A DNA stretch of 20,000 bases from an uncultured virus (IMG/VR IMGVR_UViG_3300025585_000041) (IMGVR_UViG_3300025585_000041:55870-75869), one strand, 5' to 3'. Shown: positions 1 through 19,954, counted from the first letter of the stretch. Made by a program: numbers and translations. Notes: generated by a model from the sequence alone, not told the origin.

Positions 1-154
1 TAATAAAGAAGAGGCACTAAATATAGCATACTCCATTGGAATGGAAGAATGGGTGCATGAATGGCCTGAAGATAAAGAATTAGATCGATGGCAAAGCACA
101 CGAAAAAGTAAATGGGGTAAAAAAATGATAAAGGTAGTGGAAAAAAATGCATAA
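1..154 (+). CDS. 3' end of a hypothetical protein (partial, runs off window start)
   Basis: Frame 2 is open from base 2 (NKEEALNIAYSIGMEEWVHEWPEDKELDRW...VEKNA) to TAA at 152-154 and overlaps the whiB start, like the other coupled genes here. Confidence 0.7.
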   Translation, partial: NKEEALNIAYSIGMEEWVHEWPEDKELDRWQSTRKSKWGKKMIKVVEKNA

Positions 155-431
155 AATAAAATGGAAAGATAATGCCAGTTGCCTTGGATATGACACAAAT
201 ATATTTTTTGATAAATATGAAGAATCTGAGTCTTTTAGAGAAGCAATAGACAAATTATGTTTAAGTTGTCCAGTCTTAAAAACTTGTTTTTCTGTAGGTG
301 TTTCTCAAAAAGAATGGGGAGTTTGGGGTGGAGTTTATTTAGAAAATGGTGATATTTCTAAAGAATTTAATTCCCATAGATCAGAAAAAGATTGGAGCAA
401 TGTCTGGACTATCCTGACAAATGAAAAATAA
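147..431 (+). CDS. whiB: WhiB-family Fe-S transcription regulator
   Basis: Four Cys in WhiB spacing (ASC...LCLSCPVLKTC) plus the GVWGG turn motif. Confidence 0.92.
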   Translation: MHKIKWKDNASCLGYDTNIFFDKYEESESFREAIDKLCLSCPVLKTCFSVGVSQKEWGVWGGVYLENGDISKEFNSHRSEKDWSNVWTILTNEK

Positions 432-1361
432 ATGTTTGTATACGGAGATTGGAAGCAGCCAAATAAACTAGAGGGACTACATAGAATAAGTGTTCCAAAA
501 TTAGGTTATGTATGGCCAATTATGGGACAGTTAGAAGATAATGAGGAATTTTCTGAAAGACTAATTGAAAAACCTGATCTTCATTTAGTCTTATGGCAAA
601 AAAATTTTTTACATGCATTTTTTAATATGGTTCAGTACATTTTACACTATCATAGAATAAATAATGATGCTTATTTTGTCATAATGTTTGGATTAGATTA
701 TCGTGAAGAAGACAAAGAAATAAATCATGCTAAGTTTATCTTAAAACTTTTAGATGATAAAAAAATTAAATATGAATTAGTTTATTTAAAAGAAGAGTCA
801 ATTGTAGTTAAAGATGCAACATATATGTCAGTTATACCTTTTTCTTCTTTTGTTTTTAAAGAAGTGTATGACTATTGTAGTACTAAAATAAATAGAGTTA
901 AATCTCCTAATAAAGTTGCCTATTTAGCAAGATCAAAAGTTCCACCAAAAGCAGAAAATAGTATTTTTAATGGAAAAGATCAAAATTCTTTTAGAATAAA
1001 AAATGATTTAAGGATAGAAGATGAAGAGGTATTAATTGAATATTTTAAGCAAAAAGGTTTTGACATAGTTTATCCAGAAGATTTTGCAAGTTTTGAAGAA
1101 CAAATTATTTATTTTGACAGTGTAAAGGCAATGATATGTCCATCTGGTTCTGGCATGGCTAATATGATGTTTTTGCAGCCATCACAAATTGTGGTGGAAT
1201 TGCAAACCCCAGTATTAATAGGTGGAACACAACAAGTGCATCCATTTTATGAAGGTTTTGCTTGGGCAAAAAAACATAATCTTATTACTATTCCACATGA
1301 AAGAAAATCAGAGCATATAATAGAATATTTTGAAAAAAGAAAATTTTTGGAGTATTTATGA
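432..1361 (+). CDS. Glycosyltransferase family 61 (DUF563-like) protein
   Basis: C-terminal YLAR...LRIEDEEVL...GFDIVYPE..SFEEQI.YF...SGSGMANMMF pattern typical of GT61/DUF563. Confidence 0.75.
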   Translation: MFVYGDWKQPNKLEGLHRISVPKLGYVWPIMGQLEDNEEFSERLIEKPDLHLVLWQKNFLHAFFNMVQYILHYHRINNDAYFVIMFGLDYREEDKEINHAKFILKLLDDKKIKYELVYLKEESIVVKDATYMSVIPFSSFVFKEVYDYCSTKINRVKSPNKVAYLARSKVPPKAENSIFNGKDQNSFRIKNDLRIEDEEVLIEYFKQKGFDIVYPEDFASFEEQIIYFDSVKAMICPSGSGMANMMFLQPSQIVVELQTPVLIGGTQQVHPFYEGFAWAKKHNLITIPHERKSEHIIEYFEKRKFLEYL

Positions 1362-2320
1362 TAAGAATGGAACCAAGAAAGCCAATATATTATGATGGCT
1401 TATTTAAAATTGAAGATGGATTTAATGCTTCTATGCCAATTATTACTAAGATAACTCATGAAGAATTTAAGGGCTATACATTTAATCAACATAATAACGG
1501 AGATCACTTTTTAGATGATACTAATAGAAAAAGGATAGTCGTTAGATTTGAGTCAGCATTTTTTCATATATTTTTTCACGTACTTGGTCCAATTTTATAT
1601 GAATATAAACAAGATAAAAACATTGAGGTAATACTATTACATCCAAGCAAAGAAAAAGATATTTTTCATAATAGTGGATTATTTGTAATAAATGTATTAA
1701 GAAAATATGGTATTCCGTATAGCGTTGTGCAAACACATTCTATTTATCCCCCAATAGTTAGAAATTTTTATTATTACGAAGAGACAGAGTTATGTGGAGA
1801 ATTTATTCGCTGTCTTGATGAGATGGTTGAAGGATATCGAGATCTTTCTATATCTAATGACAAAAAAATATATGTTTCTAGACAAAAAAAACAAAACATG
1901 ATGGCAACACAATTACACCAAATGTCACAAGAAGAAATAGATAAATTAGAATTTAAAGATGATTTAAGAATTGATAATGAAGAATATTTAGAGAATTTAT
2001 TAAGAGCCAATGGATTTGAAATATGTACCCCAGAAATGTTTAATAGCATTGAAGATCAAATAAAATATTTTGATAAAGCAAAAATTATAGTTTCATTATC
2101 TGGATCAGGACTCACTAATTTGCTTTTTATGAGAAAAAATACAACCATTATAGAGTTAAGTACAACACAATTACTTAAACAGAATATAGAATTTCATTTT
2201 CATTTTTATCTAATATCTTCTTTATTTTCTGAAAAAATATATGTATCAGTACCAAATGTCACTAGAAAATATGATAAAATAGAAAAAGAACTTGAAAGGT
2301 TTATAAAAATATATGACTAA
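1358..2320 (+). CDS. Glycosyltransferase family 61 (DUF563-like) protein, paralog of upstream gene
   Basis: IYVSR...DLRIDNEEYL...GFEICTPE...IEDQIKYF...SGSGLTNLLF; ATGA overlap with the previous gene. Confidence 0.75.
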   Translation: MIRMEPRKPIYYDGLFKIEDGFNASMPIITKITHEEFKGYTFNQHNNGDHFLDDTNRKRIVVRFESAFFHIFFHVLGPILYEYKQDKNIEVILLHPSKEKDIFHNSGLFVINVLRKYGIPYSVVQTHSIYPPIVRNFYYYEETELCGEFIRCLDEMVEGYRDLSISNDKKIYVSRQKKQNMMATQLHQMSQEEIDKLEFKDDLRIDNEEYLENLLRANGFEICTPEMFNSIEDQIKYFDKAKIIVSLSGSGLTNLLFMRKNTTIIELSTTQLLKQNIEFHFHFYLISSLFSEKIYVSVPNVTRKYDKIEKELERFIKIYD

Positions 2321-3041
2321 TATACTTATTCCAATTGCTGGACTTGGTAGTAGGTTTCCAGTAGACATATATAAAACAACTAAGCCATTAATAAAAATAA
2401 ATGGAATTTCTATGATACAGCATGCCATAAATTCTTTATCTATAAAAGGAAAGTATAATTTTGTAGTTAGAGATAACATATTTTTTGATGAATTATATTC
2501 AACATTAAAAAACATTGAGCCAACATGTAATATTATTAAGATTGATAAATTAACAAATGGACCAGCAGAAACATGCTTGATGGCAAAAGATTTTATCAAT
2601 AATGATGAAGAACTCATAATTGCTAACTCTGATCAAATAATGTGGTGGGATTCTGATTTATTTTTACAGGTAGCACGTAATTCAAAATATGATGGAATGA
2701 TTGTAACTTATACCGCAAATACAGATAAAAATAGTTATGCTAAAATAAATAAAAATGGATTAGTTTTAGAAATAAAAGAAAAAGAAATTATAAGTGATAT
2801 ATCATTAAATGGAATACATTATTGGAAACATGGAAAAGATTTTGTTGATAGTGCAAGCAAAATGATATTAAATAACGAAAGATATAATGGAGAATTTTAT
2901 GTAGGACCTACTTATAATTCAATGATTAAAGATGGTAAAAAAATTGGAATTTATCACATACCTTCTTTTCAACATAATGCTGTTGGAGTACCTTCTGATT
3001 TAGAACTATATATGGAGAAACTATGGAAATTAGAAGAATAG
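2313..3041 (+). CDS. Sugar-phosphate nucleotidyltransferase (NTP_transferase / GT2 BcbE-like)
   Basis: N-terminal ILIPIAGLGSRF...KPLIKING signature, T.GPAET, IANSDQ, GIHYW, NGEFYVGPTYN, GVPSDL. Confidence 0.85.
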   Translation: MTNILIPIAGLGSRFPVDIYKTTKPLIKINGISMIQHAINSLSIKGKYNFVVRDNIFFDELYSTLKNIEPTCNIIKIDKLTNGPAETCLMAKDFINNDEELIIANSDQIMWWDSDLFLQVARNSKYDGMIVTYTANTDKNSYAKINKNGLVLEIKEKEIISDISLNGIHYWKHGKDFVDSASKMILNNERYNGEFYVGPTYNSMIKDGKKIGIYHIPSFQHNAVGVPSDLELYMEKLWKLEE

Positions 3042-3346
3042 AAGACTTTACCAGAGGATGGATTATAGGAAACTTTGATCCGTCTTTATTAAAAACAGAT
3101 AAATTTGAGGTTGGTTTGTTAACTCATAAGGCTGGAGAAATGTGGCCAAAACATTACCATGAGGTTGCAACAGAATATAATGTTCTTGTATCTGGTAGAA
3201 TGATAATACAAGGAAAAGAATTAAAATCTGGAGACGTTTTTGTTTTTAATCCAGGAGATATAGCAGATCCAATATTTTTAGAAGATTGTTCAGTTTTAGT
3301 AGTAAAAGTTCCATCTATTATAGGAGATAAGTATGAAGTTTTATAG
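3023..3346 (+). CDS. RmlC-like cupin domain protein
   Basis: GWIIGNF..., metal-binding KHYH...TEYN, G-D-V-F-V-F-N-P-G beta-barrel pattern; 107 aa. Confidence 0.75.
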   Translation: MEIRRIEDFTRGWIIGNFDPSLLKTDKFEVGLLTHKAGEMWPKHYHEVATEYNVLVSGRMIIQGKELKSGDVFVFNPGDIADPIFLEDCSVLVVKVPSIIGDKYEVL

Positions 3347-4538
3347 AGACTTAGACGACTCTGAAAAACAAAGATGTATAGTTGTAACATATTATATAGA
3401 AGTCAATCCTTCACATGGTAGATTAAATGATGCTGCATGGGCGCTTGCTATTGGACAAAGTGTTGGTAATCCAAAACAAAGAAATAGTTGGGAAACTGAT
3501 GATATATTTGAAATGTCATCATGTGTTATTTATGATGATGAAGAAAAATTAAAATTAGCACTAAATGGTTTTGTTAAAATTGGTTTTCCAAAAATAAATT
3601 CAGATTGGGATAACGATGGTATTTCGCATTTCTTATGTCAGATTATGGGTGGACAATTAGACATTGATGTATTTAAAGTATGTAGAGTGGTAGATGTTGA
3701 ATTTCCAGAAAGTGTAAAAAAGAGTTTTCTTGGCCCTAAGTTTGGTATGTCTGGAATAAGAGAGTTAACTGGACAAAAAAATAAGCCATTGTTAGGCGGT
3801 ATTGTAAAACCTAAAACTGGAATATCAGTTAAACAACTAGGATATATAGTTAAAGAGTTAATTGATGGTGGCGTTGATTTTATTAAAGAAGATGAAATAT
3901 TATCTAACCCAACATTTTGTAGGCTAGAAGAAAGAGTTGAGCACATTGCTAACATTATCGCAGATTCTGGAAGAAAGGTAGTTTTTGCTCATTGTATTAA
4001 TGCTGATCCACATGCTATTTTAAATAGAGTAAAAACAGTATATGAAAATGGTGGTAATGGTGTACATGTAAACTTCTGGAGCGGATTTGGAGCATATAAC
4101 TCTATACGAAAAATGGATCTTCCAATATATATGCATTTTCAAAAAAGCGGGGATAAGATATTAACAAATCCTAGTCATAATTTTAGAATTGATTGGTATG
4201 TTATTTGTAAGTTAGCAGCATTAATGGGAGTAGATACGATACATACTGGTATGTGGGGTGGGTATTTAAGTGATGACGAAGATAATTTAAAAAGATCTAT
4301 AGATTTATTAAATGATAATAATGTTGTGCCAGCGCTAAGTTGCGGAATGCATCCTGGCCTTGTAGAGGCTATAAGCAGAAGGTTTGGTATAAACTATATG
4401 GCAAACGTAGGAGGAGCCATCCACGGGCATTCTGGTGGCACTTTAGGGGGCACTATGGCCATGAGGCAGGCTATAGATAAGTCCTATGGTCCAGAATATA
4501 TTTCTGCTATAGAAAAGTGGGGAATTGTTAATGATTAA
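3333..4538 (+). CDS. RuBisCO-like protein (form IV RLP), RuBisCO large-subunit fold
   Basis: GPKFG..GIR, GGIVKPKTG (K175/K177 equivalents), GGVDFIKEDE (carbamylated Lys/metal motif), IHTG, SCGMHPG, GGAIHGH. The HRA motif and the loop-6 Lys of true RuBisCO are missing. Confidence 0.92.
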   Translation: MKFYRDLDDSEKQRCIVVTYYIEVNPSHGRLNDAAWALAIGQSVGNPKQRNSWETDDIFEMSSCVIYDDEEKLKLALNGFVKIGFPKINSDWDNDGISHFLCQIMGGQLDIDVFKVCRVVDVEFPESVKKSFLGPKFGMSGIRELTGQKNKPLLGGIVKPKTGISVKQLGYIVKELIDGGVDFIKEDEILSNPTFCRLEERVEHIANIIADSGRKVVFAHCINADPHAILNRVKTVYENGGNGVHVNFWSGFGAYNSIRKMDLPIYMHFQKSGDKILTNPSHNFRIDWYVICKLAALMGVDTIHTGMWGGYLSDDEDNLKRSIDLLNDNNVVPALSCGMHPGLVEAISRRFGINYMANVGGAIHGHSGGTLGGTMAMRQAIDKSYGPEYISAIEKWGIVND

Positions 4539-4971
4539 AATATCACATAGGGGTAATCTATATGGTAAAAATGAATCAAGAGAAAACTCCCCAGATTATA
4601 TTGCTGAGGCTATAAATGCTGGATACAATGTTGAAATAGATTTTTGGTTTGTAAATAATAAAATGTATTTAGGACATGATAAACCAACATATGAGATCGA
4701 CATATATTTTTTAAATTCTTATATTAAAAAGTTATGGATTCATTGTAAAAATTTAGAAGCCTTAGATTTAGTTTTATCAATGCCAAAATATTATAATGCG
4801 TTTTGGCACCAAGAAGATGATTTTACAATAACTACTAATCATTATATATGGACATACCCTGGTATGCCAGTTACACCAAAAAGTATTTTGGTTCATCAAG
4901 AAATGCCAACCGCAGATGTTTTAAATATGCAGATGGCTGGAATCTGTAGTGATCATATTGGAAGAGTATAA
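4531..4971 (+). CDS. PLC-like/glycerophosphodiester phosphodiesterase-family protein
   Basis: ISHRGN...ENS...A...GYNVEIDFW...LGHD...LWIHCKN. ATG at 4531, overlapping the RLP stop, is preferred to the TTG at 4525. Confidence 0.75.
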   Translation: MIKISHRGNLYGKNESRENSPDYIAEAINAGYNVEIDFWFVNNKMYLGHDKPTYEIDIYFLNSYIKKLWIHCKNLEALDLVLSMPKYYNAFWHQEDDFTITTNHYIWTYPGMPVTPKSILVHQEMPTADVLNMQMAGICSDHIGRV

Positions 4972-4973
4972 AA

Positions 4974-5180
4974 ATGAACAATAAAGAATATTTAGAATTT
5001 TTAAGACAAAAAAATAAAAAAATTATGTCTAAATGTTATTACTGTGATGGTTTTGCAATAACAATAATTGCAGATGGTTACTCAATACATCCTGTATGTA
5101 AAAATCATGATAATAGATCATTTGATATAATTGAAGATGATATAAATAAAATTTTTGAAAGTCAGAGGGATTTTGAATGA
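4974..5180 (+). CDS. Small protein with putative zinc finger
   Basis: CYYC...CKNH; coupled to neighbours (ATGA overlap at 5177-5180). Confidence 0.6.
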   Translation: MNNKEYLEFLRQKNKKIMSKCYYCDGFAITIIADGYSIHPVCKNHDNRSFDIIEDDINKIFESQRDFE

Positions 5181-5938
5181 TTATACAAATTATAGGATTA
5201 CCAGGTTCTGGTAAGACAGAGTTAGCAAAAGCATTAAAAGAACGAATTAATGCTATTCATCTTAATGCGGATGAGGTTCGTGCTACCGTAAATTCTGACC
5301 TTGGCTTTAGCCATGAAGATAGGATTGAGCAGGCAAGACGAATGGGTGAGATGGCTCGTCTTATTGCAAAACAAGGGGTTGCACCAGTAGTAGTTGATTT
5401 TGTTTGTCCTACAGAATTAACTCGTGCAGCATTTGGTAAGCCAGATATTTTAGTTTATATGGAAACAATTGAGGCTGGTAGATTTGAAGATACTAATAAA
5501 ATGTTTGAAGTGCCATCTAACTTTGATATGGCATTTATTAGTCATGAATGGGATGCCAATGAAAAAGCATCGGTAATCATTAATCAATTTAATTTACACG
5601 ATTGGTCAGCACCTACAACATTAATGCTTGGTAGATATCAGCCTTGGCATGAAGGCCATCATGCTTTGTATGAAGAGGCTGGGAAAAGAACAAAACAAGT
5701 GCTTCTTGGGGTACGCAATACATATAACACAAGTCCAAAAGATCCGCTTAAATTTGATCAAGTTAAAGAATATATTTCAAAAGATGAGTTTATGGATGGG
5801 GCAATGGTGCTACGTTTGCCAAATATTACTAACATAGTTTATGGTCGTGATGTAGGATATAAAATTGAACAGATTGAACTTGCTCCAGAAATACAGGCTA
5901 TTTCTGCGACACAAAAACGTAAGGAAATGGGAATATGA
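5177..5938 (+). CDS. Adenylylsulfate (APS) kinase-like P-loop domain fused to HxGH nucleotidyltransferase domain
   Basis: N-terminus GLPGSGKT, LNADEVR, DLGFSHEDRIEQARR (CysC-like); C-terminus LGRYQPWHEGH (cytidyltransferase-like HIGH motif). Confidence 0.82.
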   Translation: MIIQIIGLPGSGKTELAKALKERINAIHLNADEVRATVNSDLGFSHEDRIEQARRMGEMARLIAKQGVAPVVVDFVCPTELTRAAFGKPDILVYMETIEAGRFEDTNKMFEVPSNFDMAFISHEWDANEKASVIINQFNLHDWSAPTTLMLGRYQPWHEGHHALYEEAGKRTKQVLLGVRNTYNTSPKDPLKFDQVKEYISKDEFMDGAMVLRLPNITNIVYGRDVGYKIEQIELAPEIQAISATQKRKEMGI

Positions 5939-6237
5939 ATAAAATTAAATATATTTGGGAAATAGTAAAAGACCGTTGGATTAGACCATATGATGAAATT
6001 ACTGTAAGGTTTAATACAAAGGCACAACCAGAAGATCCTTTGGTATGGAGAATTTTTATTAATGGAGTTGAAAATTTAGCAAGTGGATTTGAAATTCATG
6101 GATATGTTTATGATATTGTGAATCAGCATAACGGTGAGACAAAATGGAATGTTGGATGTAAGGGAAGAGTTCGTTGGGAAGGTTCTAAGGCTATTATTAT
6201 TACAGCGCCAAAACAATCAGAAGACCTTTTGTCATAA
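5935..6237 (+). CDS. Hypothetical protein
   Basis: 100-aa ORF in the coupled run (ATGA overlap upstream, abutting downstream). Confidence 0.65.
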   Translation: MNKIKYIWEIVKDRWIRPYDEITVRFNTKAQPEDPLVWRIFINGVENLASGFEIHGYVYDIVNQHNGETKWNVGCKGRVRWEGSKAIIITAPKQSEDLLS

Positions 6238-6474
6238 ATGTATACAGATGGAATGCGTAGGGCTTTTAGGTCATTAAACCATTTTTGTCCTAAAGGTTTT
6301 AGTTTAGAACTTATAGATAATGATAATTTTATTACTGTTAAAGCATCAGAAAAATCTTTTATGTCGTTACTTGACGAAGACAAGCGTCGTGCTGTAGAAT
6401 ATATGGTAAGAGTAAAAAAAGCATTAGAAGATAATGGTGCCATTGTCTTATTAGTAAGAGAAGGCGGAAAATGA
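6238..6474 (+). CDS. Hypothetical protein
   Basis: 78-aa ORF abutting the previous stop, with an ATGA overlap to the next ORF. Confidence 0.7.
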   Translation: MYTDGMRRAFRSLNHFCPKGFSLELIDNDNFITVKASEKSFMSLLDEDKRRAVEYMVRVKKALEDNGAIVLLVREGGK

Positions 6475-6605
6475 AAAATAAATTTATTTTTGGCATTATT
6501 GGAATAATAACCTTATCAACAATATTAACATTTTGGGTTAGGCAGTTGACAAAAATTGAAGACTTTGATATATTTGGAGATATAGAAGACGAGGAAGATC
6601 TATAA
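6471..6605 (+). CDS. Small membrane-anchored protein (44 aa; not in ORF track)
   Basis: MKNKFIFGIIGIITLSTILTFWVRQLTKIEDFDIFGDIEDEEDL: one hydrophobic helix and an acidic tail. Fills the gap exactly (ATGA and TAATG overlaps). Confidence 0.7.
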   Translation: MKNKFIFGIIGIITLSTILTFWVRQLTKIEDFDIFGDIEDEEDL

Positions 6606-7102
6606 TGCAAACATTTCTACCATCATCAGATTTTAATATCTGTGCAAAAATGCTTGATTCTAAAAGATTAAATAAGCAAATATTAGAAGGCTACCAAATA
6701 CTAAATGTGCTCTCTGGAAACTCACCTACTGGTGGTTGGCGCAATCATCCTGCCGTACTTATGTGGAAAGGCAGCGAATGGATGCTTAATGAATACGTTT
6801 ATGCAATGATTAAAGAAGCAAAGTCTAGAAATATAAAAGTTGATAAAAATCAAGAAAATATGAAATTATTAAAAACAAGATTTTCTAAAATTTGGGGTAA
6901 AAATAAACCTAAATGGTTTATAGATAAAAATAAATTAATGCTTGTTATTACCACACACAAAGCAAATTTATTTAAAAAAGATCCTCTTTATTATGCAAAA
7001 TTTCAACACGCTATTTATAGCATAAATAACTCACCTTGCTGTCCAAATCGTAAAGAACCTTGTAAGTATTATTGGCCAACACACGAGGATAAATATGCTT
7101 GA
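6605..7102 (+). CDS. Pyrimidine-dimer DNA glycosylase/endonuclease V family (MSMEG_6728-like)
   Basis: MQTFLP...LDSKRLNKQILEGYQIL...GGWRNHPAVLMWKG...H..NL..KDP..Y...YYWP. Confidence 0.85.
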   Translation: MQTFLPSSDFNICAKMLDSKRLNKQILEGYQILNVLSGNSPTGGWRNHPAVLMWKGSEWMLNEYVYAMIKEAKSRNIKVDKNQENMKLLKTRFSKIWGKNKPKWFIDKNKLMLVITTHKANLFKKDPLYYAKFQHAIYSINNSPCCPNRKEPCKYYWPTHEDKYA

Positions 7103-7457
7103 TTTATTAGTTTTTATTTTAGTTGTTATAGTTATTGTTGGCGCAGTTATAGAAAACATAAGATTAAAAAATAAAAATATAGAGTTAATGTTTTTGTTAA
7201 CACAATCTGCCATAGATATAAACAGTATTAAAGAAAAAATAGAAAATAATTCAGAAAATATTGAACAAGAACATCTAATAGCATTTTTAACTGAAACAAG
7301 AGATATGGCGTATAAGTATATTGAAGATTTACAAAAAGAATTAATTACATTTGCTAAAATTTTAGATCAAGAGTCATCGTCTCCAAATGATTTATCTGTT
7401 CTTAGAATTAAAAAGGCTTTTGATAACTTAGAAAGTATGAAGCCAGATGCAAATTAA
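7095..7457 (+). CDS. Hypothetical membrane-anchored coiled-coil protein
   Basis: N-terminal hydrophobic helix (LLVFILVVIVIVGAV) followed by helical charged sequence. Confidence 0.65.
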   Translation: MLDLLVFILVVIVIVGAVIENIRLKNKNIELMFLLTQSAIDINSIKEKIENNSENIEQEHLIAFLTETRDMAYKYIEDLQKELITFAKILDQESSSPNDLSVLRIKKAFDNLESMKPDAN

Positions 7458-8991
7458 TAAAATAGTAATAGTTGGCGGGGGTTCTGCTGGATGGATGACT
7501 GCATCTGCACTAATAAAAGCATACCCAGAAAAAAATATTTCTTTAATTGAAAGCACAGATATTCCAATTATTGGTGTAGGAGAAAGTACTACATTTGAAA
7601 TAAATGGATTTTTTAATTTTTTAGATTTAGACTATTCAAGCATTATGAAATATACAAATGCTGCCTATAAAGTGGCAATAGGTTTTACTAACTTTAAAAC
7701 TAAAGATTCGCCAACATTTTATTATCCGTTTGGACACCCCAATTTAGACCCAGAAATAACACATTATGGACTTGATGATTGGCATTATAAAAAAGCATTT
7801 TATCCAAAAACAGAAGATCAAGATTATGTAAGATATTTTTTCCCGCAGGCTAAAAGCATGGAAACAAACAAACTTGTAATTGATCATATAGACTCAATGA
7901 ATCCATATCAGCCTCATAGGGATTTAGCATTGCAGATGGATGCTACTAAACTTGGTAACTGGCTTGCAGAATATTATGCTATCCCCAGGGGTGTAAATAG
8001 AATATTTGGTACAGTTACTGATATTGATGGAAATGAAAATGGTATAACATCTATACTTTTAGACAATGGCACTAAAGTTTATGCTGACTTATTTATAGAT
8101 TGTTCTGGATTTAAAAGTATCCTTTTGGGTAATTTTATGAAAGAAAAATTTATTTCTACTGCTGAATACCTTCCAAATAATAGAGCATGGACTGCACATA
8201 TTCCATATACTGATAAAGAGAAAGAATTACAAACTTTTACAAATTGTACTGCTATAAATAATGGGTGGATTTGGAATATTCCTTTATGGAATAGAATAGG
8301 CTCTGGGTACGTATACTGTAATGAATTTATTTCAGATGATGATGCATTAGAAGAATATAAAAATTATTTAGATTCAGACAAAATGGTAGTTCATGATCCA
8401 AATAGATCTAAAAATTTAACTTTTAAAAATATAAAAATTACTAATGGGTATTATGACAGATTTTGGGTTAAAAATGTAGTTGCTATTGGATTATCTGCAG
8501 GATTTTTAGAACCATTAGAAAGTACTGGATTGTTACTAACTCATCAAAATTGTTTTACTTTGGTTGATGCTCTTGAAAGAGAGCATGTAACACAATACGA
8601 TATAGATAATTTTAACTATAAGACAAAAACTAGAATTGAAAGAATGTTTGATTTTGTTGGAATGCATTATGCATTATCTCAAAGAGAAGATACGCCATAT
8701 TGGAAGCATATAACTTCAAAAAAATATCCAGAAAACTATTTTAAATCATCAGTTGAGTGGGCAAATAAAAATGTTGATACAATTAAAACTGGATTTGGCA
8801 TAAGGCCTTTCCACAAAACATATATTAGTTTATTAGAAAAAATGTCGCACTTTAATAACTCTGATATAAAAACTAAAATGGATGAATATTTTAGTAAGAG
8901 ATTAGAGGCAAAGAAAAATTGGGATAGTATTGTAGATAATTCTAAGTCGCATTTTGAAATACTAAAAGAAAAATTTTATGAAACAGAATAA
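7447..8991 (+). CDS. Flavin-dependent tryptophan halogenase (PrnA/RebH family)
   Basis: IVGGGSAGW (FAD binding), GVGEST, catalytic-Lys region AAYKVAI, FIDCSGF, GWIWNIPL (WxWxIP), GFLEPLESTG. Confidence 0.9.
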   Translation: MQINKIVIVGGGSAGWMTASALIKAYPEKNISLIESTDIPIIGVGESTTFEINGFFNFLDLDYSSIMKYTNAAYKVAIGFTNFKTKDSPTFYYPFGHPNLDPEITHYGLDDWHYKKAFYPKTEDQDYVRYFFPQAKSMETNKLVIDHIDSMNPYQPHRDLALQMDATKLGNWLAEYYAIPRGVNRIFGTVTDIDGNENGITSILLDNGTKVYADLFIDCSGFKSILLGNFMKEKFISTAEYLPNNRAWTAHIPYTDKEKELQTFTNCTAINNGWIWNIPLWNRIGSGYVYCNEFISDDDALEEYKNYLDSDKMVVHDPNRSKNLTFKNIKITNGYYDRFWVKNVVAIGLSAGFLEPLESTGLLLTHQNCFTLVDALEREHVTQYDIDNFNYKTKTRIERMFDFVGMHYALSQREDTPYWKHITSKKYPENYFKSSVEWANKNVDTIKTGFGIRPFHKTYISLLEKMSHFNNSDIKTKMDEYFSKRLEAKKNWDSIVDNSKSHFEILKEKFYETE

Positions 8992-9187
8992 ACTAGATTT
9001 AAGAGGCATTCCTTCTGCTTGTTGTCCCTTGTGTGGATCAAAAATAATAAAGGTTAAAGTTATATTTGATCCAGTTGACTATGAAGTTGGAATGTATTTC
9101 TTAGATGGAGAGTGTAGTGAGTGTGATACATTAATGACCATTCCAACACCAATGGATCATCCAAACAATATCAAAGGAGAAACATGA
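8978..9187 (+). CDS. Small zinc-ribbon protein
   Basis: CPLCGS...ECSECD CxxC pairs. Confidence 0.7.
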   Translation: MKQNKLDLRGIPSACCPLCGSKIIKVKVIFDPVDYEVGMYFLDGECSECDTLMTIPTPMDHPNNIKGET

Positions 9188-9342
9188 AAGATATACTATT
9201 ATCTATAATAACTGGTTTTGGCTGCGGAGTTATTTTTGCAGCATTTAAACTTCCAGTTCCAGCACCTCCAGTTTTTGCAGGAGTTGCTGGTATAATTGGA
9301 TTATGGCTAGGTTACGATGCCATAACTAGATTCATATCCTAG
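9184..9342 (+). CDS. XapX domain (DUF1427) small membrane protein (52 aa; not in ORF track)
   Basis: MKDILLSIITGFGCGVIFAAFKLPVPAPPVFAGVAGIIGLWLGY with the characteristic LPVPAPP..AG..GI.G...GY; AAAGGAG Shine-Dalgarno upstream. Confidence 0.8.
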   Translation: MKDILLSIITGFGCGVIFAAFKLPVPAPPVFAGVAGIIGLWLGYDAITRFIS

Positions 9343-9351
9343 GAGGAATAA

Positions 9352-9603
9352 ATGAATAAAGAAATGAAGGCAATGCTTGCATCATATGGACGTTCAGTAC
9401 TCGCTGGTGCAATTGCTTTATATATGGCTGGAGTTACAGATCCACAGACATTATTGTGGTCTCTTGTATCTGCTGTAGCACCAGTTGCATTACGTGCATT
9501 GAATCCAAACGATCCTGCATTTGGTAGATTACCAGCAGTATCTATTGTTGAAGATGTTCTTAAGAATGTAAAGCCTAAGAAGGCTCCTGCAAAAAAGAAG
9601 TAA
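9352..9603 (+). CDS. Holin-like small membrane protein
   Basis: Two hydrophobic segments, ALRALNPNDPAFG motif, highly basic C-terminus; AGGAGG Shine-Dalgarno at 9341-9346. Confidence 0.55.
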   Translation: MNKEMKAMLASYGRSVLAGAIALYMAGVTDPQTLLWSLVSAVAPVALRALNPNDPAFGRLPAVSIVEDVLKNVKPKKAPAKKK

Positions 9604-9604
9604 T

Positions 9605-9648
9605 AAAAGGGATGGGCTATTCTTTGTAGTAGCCCATCTTTACTTTTT
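9605..9648. terminator. Probable bidirectional intrinsic terminator between convergent genes
   Basis: Inverted repeat GATGGGCTA (9611-9619)/TAGCCCATC (9630-9638), with an A-run before and a T-rich run after; overlaps the stop of the minus-strand gene. Confidence 0.7.
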
Positions 9649-10501
9649 CATATAATTCATAATCTAAATTTTGTTTTTCTGTTATTAATTTTTTAAAACT
9701 ATCTGGAATTGTTTTTTTAAATTCATTATTTTTTTCACTTCCAGTATTTTGATATCCTTTAATTTTTGTTGACAAAGAAATATTAATATTTTTTTCTAAA
9801 AAATTATTTAAATTTGATAAATCATTTTGATTGTCTATAGTTTCAATATAATCTATATTTGAAAGAGCACTATCAATGTTGCTATACACCCGAACTAAAT
9901 CATTATATGATAACGAAAATTCTTTATATTGATCAAAAGTAATTTCTTTTGATGCTAATTTATCATAAAATCTTTTTAAATCAGACATATTGAGAGTACA
10001 TGTTAAATATTTATATTGCATATTATCATTTCTATTATCAAACATATGCTCTTCTAACTTCTCTAAACTAGGATTTTCATTTTTATATAAATAATTACTT
10101 ATATATCTGTCTGTTGGATTTCTAAGTATTGTATATGTAAATAATTTCTTTTCATGTTTTTTAAATAATTCTATTGGATATAACGCAAAATGACCTGATA
10201 TAAAATCACATTTTAACATTTCTTTATCATCTAAATATTGTAAAAAGTTACTATAGATTCTATGATCTTTATAGGTATGTAGCAATACTTCTTTCACAGA
10301 CATACCAGAGGTTTTTGGAATATGTAAAAAATAAAATGACTTTTCTGGAACGTTATCTTCCCATTCAATTCTATAAACTAATTCTCCACCCTTTAAAAAA
10401 AATCCAGGTTGAACAATCCATGCTGGAAATATTCCTTTTTCACACTCTATTTCATCATGTACAGAATAAACTTTGTCGTTAATTATTTTTTTTAAAGTCA
10501 T
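9617..10501 (-). CDS. Sulfotransferase family (Sulfotransfer_2-like) protein
   Basis: FLHIPKTSG (5'-PSB loop), SGHF, LRNPTDRYISNYLY (3'-PB), C-terminal QNLDYELYE. Confidence 0.8.
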   Translation of the reverse strand: MTLKKIINDKVYSVHDEIECEKGIFPAWIVQPGFFLKGGELVYRIEWEDNVPEKSFYFLHIPKTSGMSVKEVLLHTYKDHRIYSNFLQYLDDKEMLKCDFISGHFALYPIELFKKHEKKLFTYTILRNPTDRYISNYLYKNENPSLEKLEEHMFDNRNDNMQYKYLTCTLNMSDLKRFYDKLASKEITFDQYKEFSLSYNDLVRVYSNIDSALSNIDYIETIDNQNDLSNLNNFLEKNINISLSTKIKGYQNTGSEKNNEFKKTIPDSFKKLITEKQNLDYELYEKVKMGYYKE

Positions 10502-16730: not shown

Positions 16731-16880
16731 ATGTCTAAAAAATCATCTGGTTCATACAAAAGGCACGATGGATTTAATCCCATACAAATTAAGAATGGTA
16801 ATGTTGTACGCTTAAGAAAAGACGGTACAATTAAAGCAATTCTTGGTAAATATGGAGAATATAAAAAAGATACTAAATAG
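16731..16880 (+). CDS. Small basic protein (49 aa; not in ORF track)
   Basis: MSKKSSGSYKRHDGFNPIQIKNGNVVRLRKDGTIKAILGKYGEYKKDTK; starts 3 nt after the upstream stop and fills the gap to the convergent gene. Confidence 0.65.
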   Translation: MSKKSSGSYKRHDGFNPIQIKNGNVVRLRKDGTIKAILGKYGEYKKDTK

Positions 16881-17634
16881 ATAAATTATTATTTATTCCA
16901 TCTACCACAATGCATAAATTGCCAAATATTTTATTTTGATCTATATATTGTTTTATATTTTTTAAAGTACTACGAATTACTTTTTGATGATCTGTAGTTA
17001 AATCAATACAAAAAACTGCTTTTCTTTCTTCGCCAAAAAATGTAATACATTCATTAATAAAAATATCATGATCAAAACAATTATGAAGCATGTGTATTTT
17101 ATCTTCTTTATCAATTGGTCTATGATTTGAATTATGTAATAAAAAAATCATAGGAACAGGAGACATTTTTAAAAATTCAAACTTTTTATGTCTTTCTTCA
17201 TCTACGCTGTGCATAAAGCCTTCAAATAAAAAGTTATTTAATATATTGGATAATGATGCTGCAGCAAGAGCAACAGATGGCCCTGGAGTAGTTATAATTT
17301 GTATATCATTTTTAATTGCTTCATCAACAAGTATAGTACCAGGATCTGCAAGACCAGGCATACCTTCATCAGATATTATATAAACATCCTCGCCATTTTT
17401 TAAAATTGAAATTATTCTTTCTTTTACTTCGTTTTCTCTGTTATTGTTTAACGAAAAACATATATCAATTAGTTCTGCATTATATATAAAATTATTAAAA
17501 GAACAATATTCTTTAAATCTATCTATATCTTCAACGCATATATATTTAGCGTCATTAAATGCATTTAATAACCTTTGAGATGTATCCAACATGTTGCCAA
17601 TTGGAGATCCAATTAGATGTAATTTACCAAACAC
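16873..17634 (-). CDS. RsmI-like (tetrapyrrole methylase fold) SAM-dependent methyltransferase, copy 1
   Basis: GKLHLIGSPIGNMLDTSQR, ICVED, IISDEGMPGLADPG, TPGPS, FLFEGF. Confidence 0.82.
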   Translation of the reverse strand: MFGKLHLIGSPIGNMLDTSQRLLNAFNDAKYICVEDIDRFKEYCSFNNFIYNAELIDICFSLNNNRENEVKERIISILKNGEDVYIISDEGMPGLADPGTILVDEAIKNDIQIITTPGPSVALAAASLSNILNNFLFEGFMHSVDEERHKKFEFLKMSPVPMIFLLHNSNHRPIDKEDKIHMLHNCFDHDIFINECITFFGEERKAVFCIDLTTDHQKVIRSTLKNIKQYIDQNKIFGNLCIVVDGINNNLSI

Positions 17635-18461: not shown

Positions 18462-18496
18462 AATATTAAAATTATACCATAGTGTATAATGAATAT
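18462..18496. promoter_or_regulatory. Divergent -10 promoter pair
   Basis: - strand TGGTATAAT-9 nt-ATG(18461); + strand TATAAT(18485-18490)-GAATAT-ATG(18497). Confidence 0.6.
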
Positions 18497-19246
18497 ATGT
18501 CGTTTGGAAAATTATATTTAGTTGGATTGCCTATTGGCAATTGGGAAGATATGTCAGTAAGAGCATTTAAATATATTCAAAATGCAAAAAATATAGTGAT
18601 AGAAAGAGAAGAGGCATTTGAAAGAATTTGGCCCGCACTTGGAATGCAAAAACCAAATGTCAATACTATATCCATTGAGTATGATTCTGATGGCGGAGAA
18701 CCTGGAGAAGCATACGAACTTCATAACATGAATAAAATAATTGATTTATTAAAAAATGGAGAAGATGTATTCTTAATTTCAGATGAAGGTATGCCAGGGG
18801 TAGCAGACCCAGGAGCAAGGATAGTTAAAAAATGTATTGCTGAAGGAATACATGTGACATCAACACCAGGACCTTCTGTTGTTATGGCTGCAGTAGCAGT
18901 TACTGGAACTATGCATAATTTTATATTTGAATCTTTTTTGCCATTTGTAAAAAATGAAAGAATTCAATTCTTAAAAGAAAGAAAAGACTACAATTATCCA
19001 ATGGTTATAATGCTTAGAAATGTAAAAAGAGGACAAGAATTTCATAATGAAATACCAGAGTTTTTAGAAGAAGCATGTGAAATACTAGGGGAAAACAGAT
19101 GGGCATCTCTTTGTTATAACTTAACTATGGATACAGAAAAAGTTATTCATAATACATTGGATAATTTAAAAGAATATTTTAATACTAATACTAGAATTAT
19201 GAGTGATCAGATTTGTATAGTAATAGAAAGTAAAAACTATAACTAA
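18497..19246 (+). CDS. RsmI-like SAM-dependent methyltransferase, copy 2
   Basis: GKLYLVGLPIGNWEDMSVRA, LISDEGMPGVADPG, TPGPS, FIFESFLP. Start set at ATG 18497 (MSFGKL), matching copy 1 (MFGKL). Confidence 0.85.
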   Translation: MSFGKLYLVGLPIGNWEDMSVRAFKYIQNAKNIVIEREEAFERIWPALGMQKPNVNTISIEYDSDGGEPGEAYELHNMNKIIDLLKNGEDVFLISDEGMPGVADPGARIVKKCIAEGIHVTSTPGPSVVMAAVAVTGTMHNFIFESFLPFVKNERIQFLKERKDYNYPMVIMLRNVKRGQEFHNEIPEFLEEACEILGENRWASLCYNLTMDTEKVIHNTLDNLKEYFNTNTRIMSDQICIVIESKNYN

Positions 19247-19464
19247 AACATTAATGAATGAGATCCATCACAAAATGGTTTATTTTTTGAAGTATTACAT
19301 ACACATAATTTTTTACGTTTTAAATTTGATTGATTCATTTTTATAATTTCTTGAGTATCACACATTTTTATTGTACACAAATCATTATCCACAGATAATA
19401 CTTCTGCAGCCTTTTTGTCATTATGATCATCACTAATAACCATTACAATTATTCCTGGTTTCAT
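19243..19464 (-). CDS. CDGSH iron-sulfur domain protein
   Basis: C-terminal CVCNTSKNKPFCDGSH; AAAAGGAG Shine-Dalgarno upstream. Confidence 0.85.
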   Translation of the reverse strand: MKPGIIVMVISDDHNDKKAAEVLSVDNDLCTIKMCDTQEIIKMNQSNLKRKKLCVCNTSKNKPFCDGSHSLMF

Positions 19465-19490
19465 ATTTTCTCCTTTTGTTTAGTATTACG

Positions 19491-19562
19491 AGCCTCCTGT
19501 AGGATTTGAACCTACGACAACTCGCTTACAAGGCGAGTACTCTACCCCTGAGTTAAGGAGGC
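19491..19562 (-). tRNA. tRNA-Thr(UGU)
   Basis: Acceptor GCCTCCT/AGGAGGC; anticodon arm CTCGC-CTTGTAA-GCGAG; T-loop GTTCAAATC; no encoded CCA. Confidence 0.93.
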
Positions 19563-19563
19563 G

Positions 19564-19636
19564 TATCTCCAACGGGATTCGAACCCGTGTTGCCACCGTG
19601 AAAGGGTGGAGTCCTAGGCCTCTAGACCATGGAGAC
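19564..19636 (-). tRNA. tRNA-Glu(UUC)
   Basis: Acceptor GTCTCCA/TGGAGAT; CCACC-CTTTCAC-GGTGG; GTTCGAATC; no encoded CCA. Confidence 0.93.
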
Positions 19637-19637
19637 T

Positions 19638-19714
19638 TGGCGATCCGTATCGGACTTGAACCGACGACCTCTACCGTGACAGGGTAGCGTTCTAACCAAC
19701 TGAACTAACGGACC
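19638..19714 (-). tRNA. tRNA-Asp(GUC)
   Basis: Acceptor GGTCCGT/ACGGATC; CTACC-CTGTCAC-GGTAG; GTTCAAGTC; ends in GCCA. Confidence 0.94.
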
Positions 19715-19715
19715 T

Positions 19716-19791
19716 TGGCTGGTCTGGCAGGTCTCGATCCTGCGACATCTCGATTAACAGTCGAGTGTTCTACCAACTGAACTACAGACCA
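19716..19791 (-). tRNA. tRNA-Asn(GUU)
   Basis: Acceptor TGGTCTG/CAGACCA; CTCGA-CTGTTAA-TCGAG; atypical T-loop ATCGAGA; ends in GCCA. Confidence 0.9.
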
Positions 19792-19805
19792 ATGTTTAAT
19801 TGTAG

Positions 19806-19877
19806 CACCCCTGAATGGATTCGAACCATCGACAAACGGATTAGAAGTCCGCTACTCTTCCACTGAGTTACAGAGGT
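19806..19877 (-). tRNA. tRNA-Arg(UCU)
   Basis: Acceptor ACCTCTG/CAGGGGT; GCGGA-CTTCTAA-TCCGT; GTTCGAATC; no encoded CCA. Confidence 0.92.
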
Positions 19878-19881
19878 TTAG

Positions 19882-19954
19882 TGCCCTTGGTTGGATTCGA
19901 ACCAACGCTTGCACGATTTTAAGTCGTGTGCCTCTGCCACTGGGCTACAAGGGC
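19882..19954 (-). tRNA. tRNA-Leu(UAA), short variable loop
   Basis: Acceptor GCCCTTG/CAAGGGC plus A73; CACGA-CTTAAAA-TCGTG; 5-nt variable region; GTTCGAATC. Confidence 0.9.

Follow-up and report, generated by a model that had tools for sequence, protein, structure and literature searches.

The locus described here raises the question of what a protein of the RuBisCO family does in a phage genome, in the midst of genes for glycan synthesis. It lies in a 20,000-nucleotide stretch of DNA (hereafter the window), which is the final 20 kb of the 75,869-base IMG/VR record of an uncultured virus, IMGVR_UViG_3300025585_000041. Positions 432-4971 carry six open reading frames (ORFs) on the + strand, encoding two GT61 glycosyltransferases, a (432-1361, 309 aa; PF04577, E = 4.3e-15, 56.6 bits against a cut-off of 27) and b (1358-2320, 320 aa; PF04577, E = 1e-17, 65.1 bits against a cut-off of 27), a sugar-/alcohol-phosphate nucleotidyltransferase (NT; 2313-3041, 242 aa; PF00483), a small metal-binding cupin, which is a candidate sugar-phosphate isomerase (3023-3346, 107 aa; weak Cupin_2/Cupin_7 matches, below cut-off), a RuBisCO-like protein (RLP; 3333-4538, 401 aa; PF00016, E = 2.9e-38, plus RuBisCO_large_N) and a miniature GDPD-like phosphodiesterase (mini-GDPD; 4531-4971, 146 aa, or 148 aa if started at 4525). 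These gene identities had been given in a preliminary description of the locus, and they are borne out by Pfam for five of the products and by motif, profile and fold for the sixth. The answer that we favour, with a probability of roughly 60%, is that positions 432-4971, in fact 147-6474, form a phage-borne operon for the synthesis and transfer of a glycan donor, in which a phospho-ketose would be isomerised and the product activated with a nucleotide. Its predicted core, NT-cupin-RLP-mini-GDPD (2313-4971), represents a cassette of four genes that is widespread.

The six ORFs overlap at each of the junctions that the preliminary description had named, by 4, 8, 19, 14 and 8 nt in order, the start codon ATG at 4531 lying within the final codons of the RLP gene and overlapping its stop. 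Of the six-gene coupled unit proposed there, the overlaps thus stand, whereas the limits do not: the run comprises eleven + strand ORFs at 147-6474, all abutting or overlapping with no gap of more than 2 nt, and the six are an arbitrary cut from it. Since overlapping gene junctions are common in compact phage genomes, the overlaps alone are weak evidence, and the case for a functional unit rests on comparative evidence instead. RLP relatives were encoded on 383 of 420 candidate stretches from IMG/VR and on 46 of 123 from GTDB, the latter at one genome per species, and 80 viral and 46 cellular loci were retained for neighbourhood analysis. By ORF clustering, an NT gene was found near that of the RLP in 75 of the 80 viral and 39 of the 46 cellular loci (mini-GDPD: 66/80 and 18/46; cupin: 66/80 and 11/46). 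Dereplication at 90% RLP identity gave 72 groups, 59 of which had at least 2 kb of flank on each side (32 viral, 27 cellular); counted within 3 kb of the RLP, an NT was present in 30/32 viral groups and 25/27 cellular ones, a cupin in 27/32 and 8/27, and a mini-GDPD in 25/32 and 10/27, while the 13 short-flank groups held NT 9 times, cupin 4 times and GDPD 3 times. The genes occurred in 29 distinct arrangements (e.g. NT-cupin-RLP-GDPD, GDPD-NT-RLP, RLP-cupin-NT, RLP-NT and GDPD-NT-RLP-NT), indicating that the association has been kept through many rearrangements. Natural fusions were also found, namely RLP+NT (P0123, 667 aa, and P0272, 813 aa) and RLP+NT+cupin (P0273, 817 aa). Linkage of NT, cupin, RLP and the SHRGN-motif protein, which had been put forward as a test of the proposal, therefore shows strong conservation, both among phages and among the glycan loci of cells.

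Not every member of this collection follows the layout of the window. A second cassette type of SAR11 (single cells L102, L105, L107 and L111-L113) encodes an RLP 42-45% identical to that of the window, has no cupin and carries an NT paralogue on either side of the RLP. Fusions of RuBisCO-family proteins also occur outside the clade described below: P0188 joins a TIR domain to an RLP (583 aa), and P0155 and P0160 (726 and 742 aa) join an IF-2B-like domain of the ribose-1,5-bisphosphate-isomerase type to a form III RuBisCO and fall in the form III group.

What the RLP itself might catalyse was approached through its residues. The protein matches the RuBisCO large-subunit superfamily domains (PF00016, 132 bits against 30.1; PF02788, 23.4 against 20.7), and residues 4-397 match the form III structure 8dht with E = 1.4e-42. 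All NCBIfam equivalogs scored far below their cut-offs, the best being rubisco_III (198 bits against 497), followed by the MtnW model NF007095 (153 against 409), the OiaX model NF042437 (147 against 700), the second MtnW model TIGR03332 (129 against 514) and the form II model (107 against 489). Residues were numbered as in RuBisCO by way of form III alignments and counted over 130 unique sequences of the clade to which the window RLP belongs. K175, K177, K201, D203, E204, S379, G381 and G403 were kept in 129-130 of the 130, and the enolising core as a whole (K201/D203/E204, K175, K177 and the P1 phosphate glycines) was present in 126-130. On the other side of the active site ledger, E60→G, T65→N, W66→P, N123→G, T173→I, H294→Q, K334→Y and G380→C were found in 128-130 sequences and R295→K in 120; the window RLP has H298→D as well, and the full carboxylation residue set of forms I-III is incomplete in it. 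As judged from these residues, the clade has kept the metal/carbamate enolisation machinery and the proximal (P1) phosphate pocket and has lost the residues for CO2 addition, and the window RLP is predicted to be an intact, non-carboxylating protein that cannot fix CO2. Because the set of substitutions is itself invariant, it suggests that one chemistry is conserved throughout. The possibility of a genuine form III RuBisCO acting in the AMP pathway was considered as well, and is excluded by the lost carboxylation residues.

The phylogenetic position of the RLP was estimated with FastTree from 124 rows, consisting of the window RLP, 14 RLPs from the loci, the RLP parts of two fusions and 107 NCBIfam-labelled representatives of 340-499 aa, shorter and longer ones being excluded; the best 150 representatives held no form I or II sequence, and the tree has no labelled DeepYkr row. 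The window RLP fell in a clade of 37 rows (SH-like support 99), apart from the form III, MtnW and OiaX-like groups, the last of which forms a separate and mostly well-supported group. Members of the clade come from other viral contigs, two SAR11 types, Beckwithbacteria, Micrarchaeota, Woesearchaeota, Verrucomicrobia, Elusimicrobia, Azospirillum, Francisellaceae and Legionella, and they include an RLP-NT fusion and a sequence from a Beckwithbacteria metagenome-assembled genome with 50% identity to the window RLP. Both this placement and the MtnW score put the RLP outside the methionine-salvage clade.

The preliminary description knew of no characterised RLP in a phage; RLPs in phages as such are already in print. 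In the available text of Jaffe et al. 2018 (PMC6389311), about 80 phage 'Form IV-like' sequences from IMG/VR contigs are described as grouping with Beckwithbacteria, with a function called 'unclear', and the main text makes no mention of glycosyl- or nucleotidyl-transferases. Those proteins are, like the window RLP, phage-borne, divergent, non-carboxylating and drawn from IMG/VR, and the clade of the window RLP appears, as matched by description, to be the same one; the available text ties some of the carriers to Myoviridae, whereas the carrier here is nearest to Streptomyces siphophages. In the literature searched, which took in few subscription journals and stopped short of the supplement of Jaffe et al., no paper was found on the cassette, the fusions or the glycan context. 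The GOS paper mentions new RuBisCO branches, without context.

The partner proteins were examined by profile, motif and fold. Pfam and NCBIfam scans left the NT, the cupin and the mini-GDPD without a name at the level of substrate. The NT passes the NTP_transferase threshold (PF00483, 23.7 bits against 21.2), its AGLGSRF motif aligning to AGMSSRF of its best PDB match, 4evw, an uncharacterised Vibrio 'NDP-sugar pyrophosphorylase' (E = 8e-14), and there were weak matches, all far below cut-off, to RmlA, GlmU, MurU and inositol-1-P cytidylyltransferase. In the ESM Atlas, the NT falls with generic NTP_transferase clusters and the mini-GDPD with mostly viral 'hypothetical protein' clusters. The cupin bears metal-binding motif 1, H44-x-H46-x4-E51, which together with H35 and G58 is invariant in 23 sequences, and the motif-2 His is absent on reading the sequence. 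Its AlphaFold2 (AF2) model has a mean pLDDT of 84, with an invariant GWxxGNFxPS loop modelled at low confidence; the best Foldseek matches were 7zvm and 7zvy, minimal cupin phosphomannose isomerases of Thermococcus (TM 0.68), and the fold reached TM 0.68-0.71 to 7zvm and 3h8u. Across 28 sequences the mini-GDPD carries the GDPD catalytic motif HRGN...EN...ExD...GHD, in which H6, R7, N19, E35, D37, H49 and D50 are invariant and E18 is nearly so, and which aligns to the N-terminal motif of the GDPDs 3i10 and 7e0v (profile against 3i10, E = 1.5e-4). Its AF2 model is a compact barrel (pLDDT 96.4) whose top Foldseek matches are GDPDs (1v8e, E = 5e-4, TMq 0.61); normalised to the target, the TM is no higher than 0.35-0.44 for the GDPD chains within the first ten rows. 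Its 146 aa fall far short of the roughly 240 aa of a complete (beta/alpha)8 barrel, and it is below the PF03009 threshold: the Pfam GDPD model gave no match to the window protein, and matched 2 of the 28 family members at E = 0.033.

Selection on these genes was estimated as dN/dS between the window and three orthologous viral loci, where dS is near 1 and the values are accordingly rough. The ratios were 0.07-0.10 for the NT, 0.08-0.13 for the cupin, 0.07-0.09 for the RLP and 0.12-0.28 for the mini-GDPD, i.e. the cassette genes are under purifying selection, and 0.17-0.32 and 0.33-0.35 for GT61 a and b, respectively. A conserved donor-making core with faster-evolving transferases would fit a glycan pathway. 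Close homologues of GT61 a (54-63% identity, plus an identical copy in L002) were found in only 5 of the 80 retained viral loci, and distant copies (30% identity) in 2 SAR11 loci. The GT61 pair, counted earlier as part of the cassette, is thus confined to this phage lineage and does not belong to the conserved set; we regard the two proteins as lineage-specific candidate transferases.

The flanks of the cassette, viral and cellular, consist of glycan genes. They hold glycosyltransferases of families GT1/2/4/11/17/25/61, WavE, DegT aminotransferases, GDP-mannose-dehydratase-like epimerases and methyltransferases, as well as an initiating transferase (Bac_transf) and a flippase (Polysacc_synt). 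Two Legionella species have a LicD-family gene adjacent to and divergent from RLP-NT (L121:6669-7517 (-) and L124:6794-7642 (-), identified by PF04991 at 1e-42 in L121 and by a shared ORF cluster in L124), both of these loci being without cupin or mini-GDPD, and three DPANN loci have GDPD genes of full length in the neighbourhood of RLP-NT. A subgroup of another composition was seen at L032:2635-5323 and in seven similar viral loci, where directly behind the RLP come genes for an APH/fructosamine-kinase-like protein, a sugar-phosphate cyclase of the dehydroquinate-synthase-like kind and an SDR, a set that by analogy recalls cyclitol (pseudosugar) pathways.

The LicD and GDPD neighbours bring in a variant that differs in donor type and transfer, and to which we assign a minor share of the probability. 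Here the NT would make a CDP-activated, non-anomeric ester of a phospho-polyol or phospho-ketose (cf. CDP-ribitol, CDP-glycerol and CDP-inositol), and LicD-type or GDPD-like enzymes, rather than Leloir transfer, would install the unit through a phosphodiester. Besides these neighbours, the presence of the mini-GDPD in most viral groups (25/32) and the weak similarity of the NT to inositol-1-P cytidylyltransferase and to MobA-like NTP transferases speak for it, as does the fact that characterised RLP substrates have a primary phosphate adjacent to the carbonyl. The substrate of the DeepYkr RLP, as given in the available text of PMC5893883, supports this premise. On the other hand, the cassette has no conserved reductase, and the adjoining transferases in the window are of family GT61. 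This family consists of Leloir-type glycosyltransferases, and the activity known for GDPD enzymes is hydrolysis rather than transfer.

Returning to glycan-donor synthesis as the favoured reading, the following course of reactions may be proposed. The small metal cupin would interconvert an aldose and a ketose phosphate in the manner of minimal archaeal phosphomannose isomerases. The RLP, using carbamylated Lys201 with Asp203, Glu204 and Mg2+, together with Lys175, Lys177 and the P1 pocket, would then enolise the phospho-ketose and either shift its carbonyl or epimerise it, without addition of CO2, as the retained residues suggest. The NT, to judge by its family, linkage and fusions, would join the resulting phosphate ester to a nucleoside monophosphate, giving an NDP- or CDP-activated donor. 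The least certain step is that of the mini-GDPD, which might make or break a phosphodiester, by trimming a second phosphate-linked group or by assisting in the attachment of a phospho-linked unit. Transfer to a glycan, most likely of the host envelope during infection, or else of the virion, would in this phage lineage finally fall to the two GT61 enzymes. RLP and NT would be the constant pair in such a scheme, and the cupin and mini-GDPD would be frequent helpers.

Several points weigh against this proposal. The cassette has no kinase or mutase to supply an anomeric sugar-1-phosphate, so the substrate of the NT may not be a classical sugar-1-phosphate. Many cellular RLP-NT pairs are without a nearby cupin (present in 8/27) or GDPD (10/27), and the four-step scheme therefore cannot be universal. 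The Pfam matches of the cupin and the GDPD assignment are below curated cut-offs, and the tree is from FastTree only, midpoint-rooted and without form I or II rows. In addition, both characterised precedents for an RLP with a cupin are, in the available text of their reports, salvage or catabolic rather than biosynthetic (PMC5893883, PMC3698126). Given the linkage, the NT fusions and the glycan flanks, a biosynthetic glycan role for the RLP, as first suggested, is still the best reading of the sequences, whereas the particular chemistry put forward with it (a branched or rearranged sugar, dephosphorylated and passed by the GT61 pair to the virion, the host surface or DNA) is hypothetical.

A broader form of the proposal can be offered tentatively, at a little under even odds. 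The RLP clade would catalyse the committed step of a pathway not yet described, leading to a rearranged sugar or polyol phosphate in nucleotide-activated form and common in sea and lakes (SAR11, Candidate Phyla Radiation (CPR) bacteria, DPANN and hundreds of phages), with which phages re-dress the host envelope or their own particles. To our knowledge, RLPs have so far been seen to act in the salvage of sulfur and the catabolism of sugar acids; if confirmed, the tie of this clade to an NT in glycan loci would add a biosynthetic function to the RuBisCO-like family. It would likewise answer what phage RLPs do, the question left by Jaffe et al. 2018. The cassette is small and strongly conserved, and it occurs in very abundant organisms (SAR11; 383 viral-contig matches), and its product could be a new surface sugar relevant to phage-host recognition.

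An acceptor other than a cell-surface glycan has to be considered as well, namely that the bases of the phage DNA, or proteins of its capsid or tail, receive the unit. The cassette is situated amid modification enzymes (2OG-Fe(II) oxygenases, halogenases and methylases) and no feature of the window names an acceptor, both of which leave room for such a modification. However, cellular cassette loci carry the Polysacc_synt flippase, Bac_transf, WavE and LicD genes, which are marks of envelope glycans, and no DNA glycosyltransferase family was found by Pfam beside the cassette, so that we consider modification of DNA or virion protein highly improbable.

The genes that surround the cassette in its run are as follows. 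The run opens with a gene for a WhiB-like transcription factor (147-431, +; PF02467, E = 1e-11), outside the cassette, whose stop abuts the start of GT61 a. Downstream of the mini-GDPD come a 68-aa ORF (4974-5180, +) without Pfam or NCBIfam match, for which the only relative besides an identical copy in L002 is in L049 (78%), and a gene (5177-5938, +) for a 253-aa protein with an APS-kinase-like P-loop domain (PF01583, E = 1e-15, residues 2-85; TIGR00455, 9.4e-17) and a cytidylyltransferase-like part (weak PF01467 match, residues 150-186). This gene has relatives in L003 and L049 at 69% and lies outside the conserved cassette; its product may serve sulfation or a phosphorylation step. Two small ORFs of 100 and 78 aa without family match (5935-6474, +) close the run. 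In the scanned region 1-9700 the strongest promoter-like site (11/12 matches) lies in the gap that follows, at 6475-6604, the first of any size. A Sulfotransfer_2 gene is located at 9617-10501 (-), 3.7 kb from the APS-kinase-like fusion gene, and the two may constitute a phage-encoded sulfation route for a glycan.

That the contig is viral and not a chimera, as had been assumed, was supported by its gene content, composition and gene order. Elsewhere in the record are genes for a tape measure protein, a minor tail protein, a DnaB-like helicase, a primase, a DnaE-like polymerase, a UvsX-like recombinase, a Cas4-like nuclease, RuvC and an endolysin; from the size of the tape measure ORF (2,662 aa; L128:5237-13222, G000 5.2-13.2 kb) the tail should be very long. 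Streptomyces siphophages of about 125 kb, e.g. BillNye, have a polymerase 55% identical to that of the record and are, on this likeness, the nearest cultured relatives of the carrier. A carrier of this Streptomyces-siphophage-like lineage, with its own GT61 pair, is what the window contributes to the picture of the cassette. Because of this kinship and the WhiB gene, an actinobacterial host is suggested, perhaps a low-GC aquatic one. Base composition is even (25-38% GC), and the gene order from WhiB to a 2-oxoglutarate (2OG) oxygenase, or at least to the sulfotransferase, is shared with four viral records (L003, L004, L049 and L073) at 52-90% protein identity, and with one identical record of 121,867 bases. 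A chimera is unlikely because of the even composition and the repetition of the gene order in other viral records, and on these grounds, taken with the phage genes, a cellular or chimeric contig was rejected. A tblastn search with the window RLP against 50,697 deposited phage genomes gave zero matches, and the sole megablast match of the whole window was 56 bases of Proteus phage 10, on a tRNA-Asp gene.

This phage genome encodes two tryptophan-halogenase-family proteins, one in the window (7447-8991, +; PF04820, 3.4e-103) and one at L129:5823-7328 (G000 about 24.8-26.3 kb; phrog_2928, 5.8e-90), and three proteins of the TP_methylase (tetrapyrrole methylase) family (window 16873-17634 (-) and 18482-19246 (+), and L130:13558-14274). 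Together with a CDGSH iron-sulfur protein (19243-19464), an Hsp20, a carbamoyltransferase and 2OG-Fe(II) oxygenases, of which there are at least five, the TP_methylases make this phage arm very rich in auxiliary metabolic genes. A six-tRNA array, Thr-tgt, Glu-ttc, Asp-gtc, Asn-gtt, Arg-tct and Leu-taa, lies at 19490-19954 (-).

Two characterised pathways give the pairing of RLP and cupin a precedent and at the same time suggest a salvage or detoxification role, in which the RLP, a phosphoesterase and the cupin would act on 5-methylthio- or 5-deoxy-ribulose-1-phosphate derived from S-adenosylmethionine (SAM), arising in quantity from the many SAM enzymes of the phage, with the NT as a bystander or activating the salvaged product. 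In the MTA-isoprenoid shunt of R. palustris and R. rubrum, the available text of PMC5893883 places the DeepYkr RLP, a 5-methylthioribulose-1-P 1,3-isomerase, beside a small cupin, as in the window; that RLP isomerises a ketose-1-phosphate by proton transfers, and its cupin, a methylsulfurylase, acts on the product. That pathway, unlike the cassette, is one of sulfur salvage, without NT or GDPD and without glycan neighbours in the text available (PMC5893883). In methionine salvage of B. subtilis, as far as PMC3698126 was available, a RuBisCO-fold enolase (MtnW) is followed by a phosphoesterase (the phosphatase MtnX) and then a cupin enzyme (the dioxygenase MtnD), a succession that resembles the cassette. 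By comparison, the esterase here has a GDPD fold and the core partner is an NT. MtnX is a phosphatase of the HAD type. Salvage remains a rival because of these two pairings, and the best profile match of the window cupin is the dioxygenase YxaG (E = 3e-7). Nevertheless, the most constant partner of the RLP, and the one physically fused to it, is the NT rather than the cupin or an esterase; MtnA, MtnK, MtnP and MtnB genes were not seen among the annotated flanking clusters; the flanks consist of glycan genes; and the RLP is outside the MtnW group of the tree, with an MtnW score far below cut-off. Judged by the NT fusions, the flanking glycan genes and the tree, the salvage reading is thus weakened, and we consider it unlikely.

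For glycan-donor synthesis, the reading that we prefer, a likeness in reaction logic is offered by the nucleotide-heptose pathways, which are encoded in glycan loci and employ a ketose-phosphate isomerase, a kinase, a phosphatase and a nucleotidyltransferase; there too a ketose phosphate is isomerised, phosphate is trimmed and the product is activated by an NTP_transferase-family enzyme. The isomerase of those pathways, however, is the SIS-fold GmhA and not a protein of RuBisCO fold, and they need a kinase, none of which is conserved in the cassette. The apiose-catabolic RLPs OiaC/OiaX (NF042437) act on a phosphorylated keto sugar acid and are catabolic, and the window RLP is set apart from them by its score on that model and by its separate group in the tree. 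What is new here is the near-constant adjacency of RLP and NT, usually joined by the cupin and the mini-GDPD, together with the fusions and the glycan-gene flanks.

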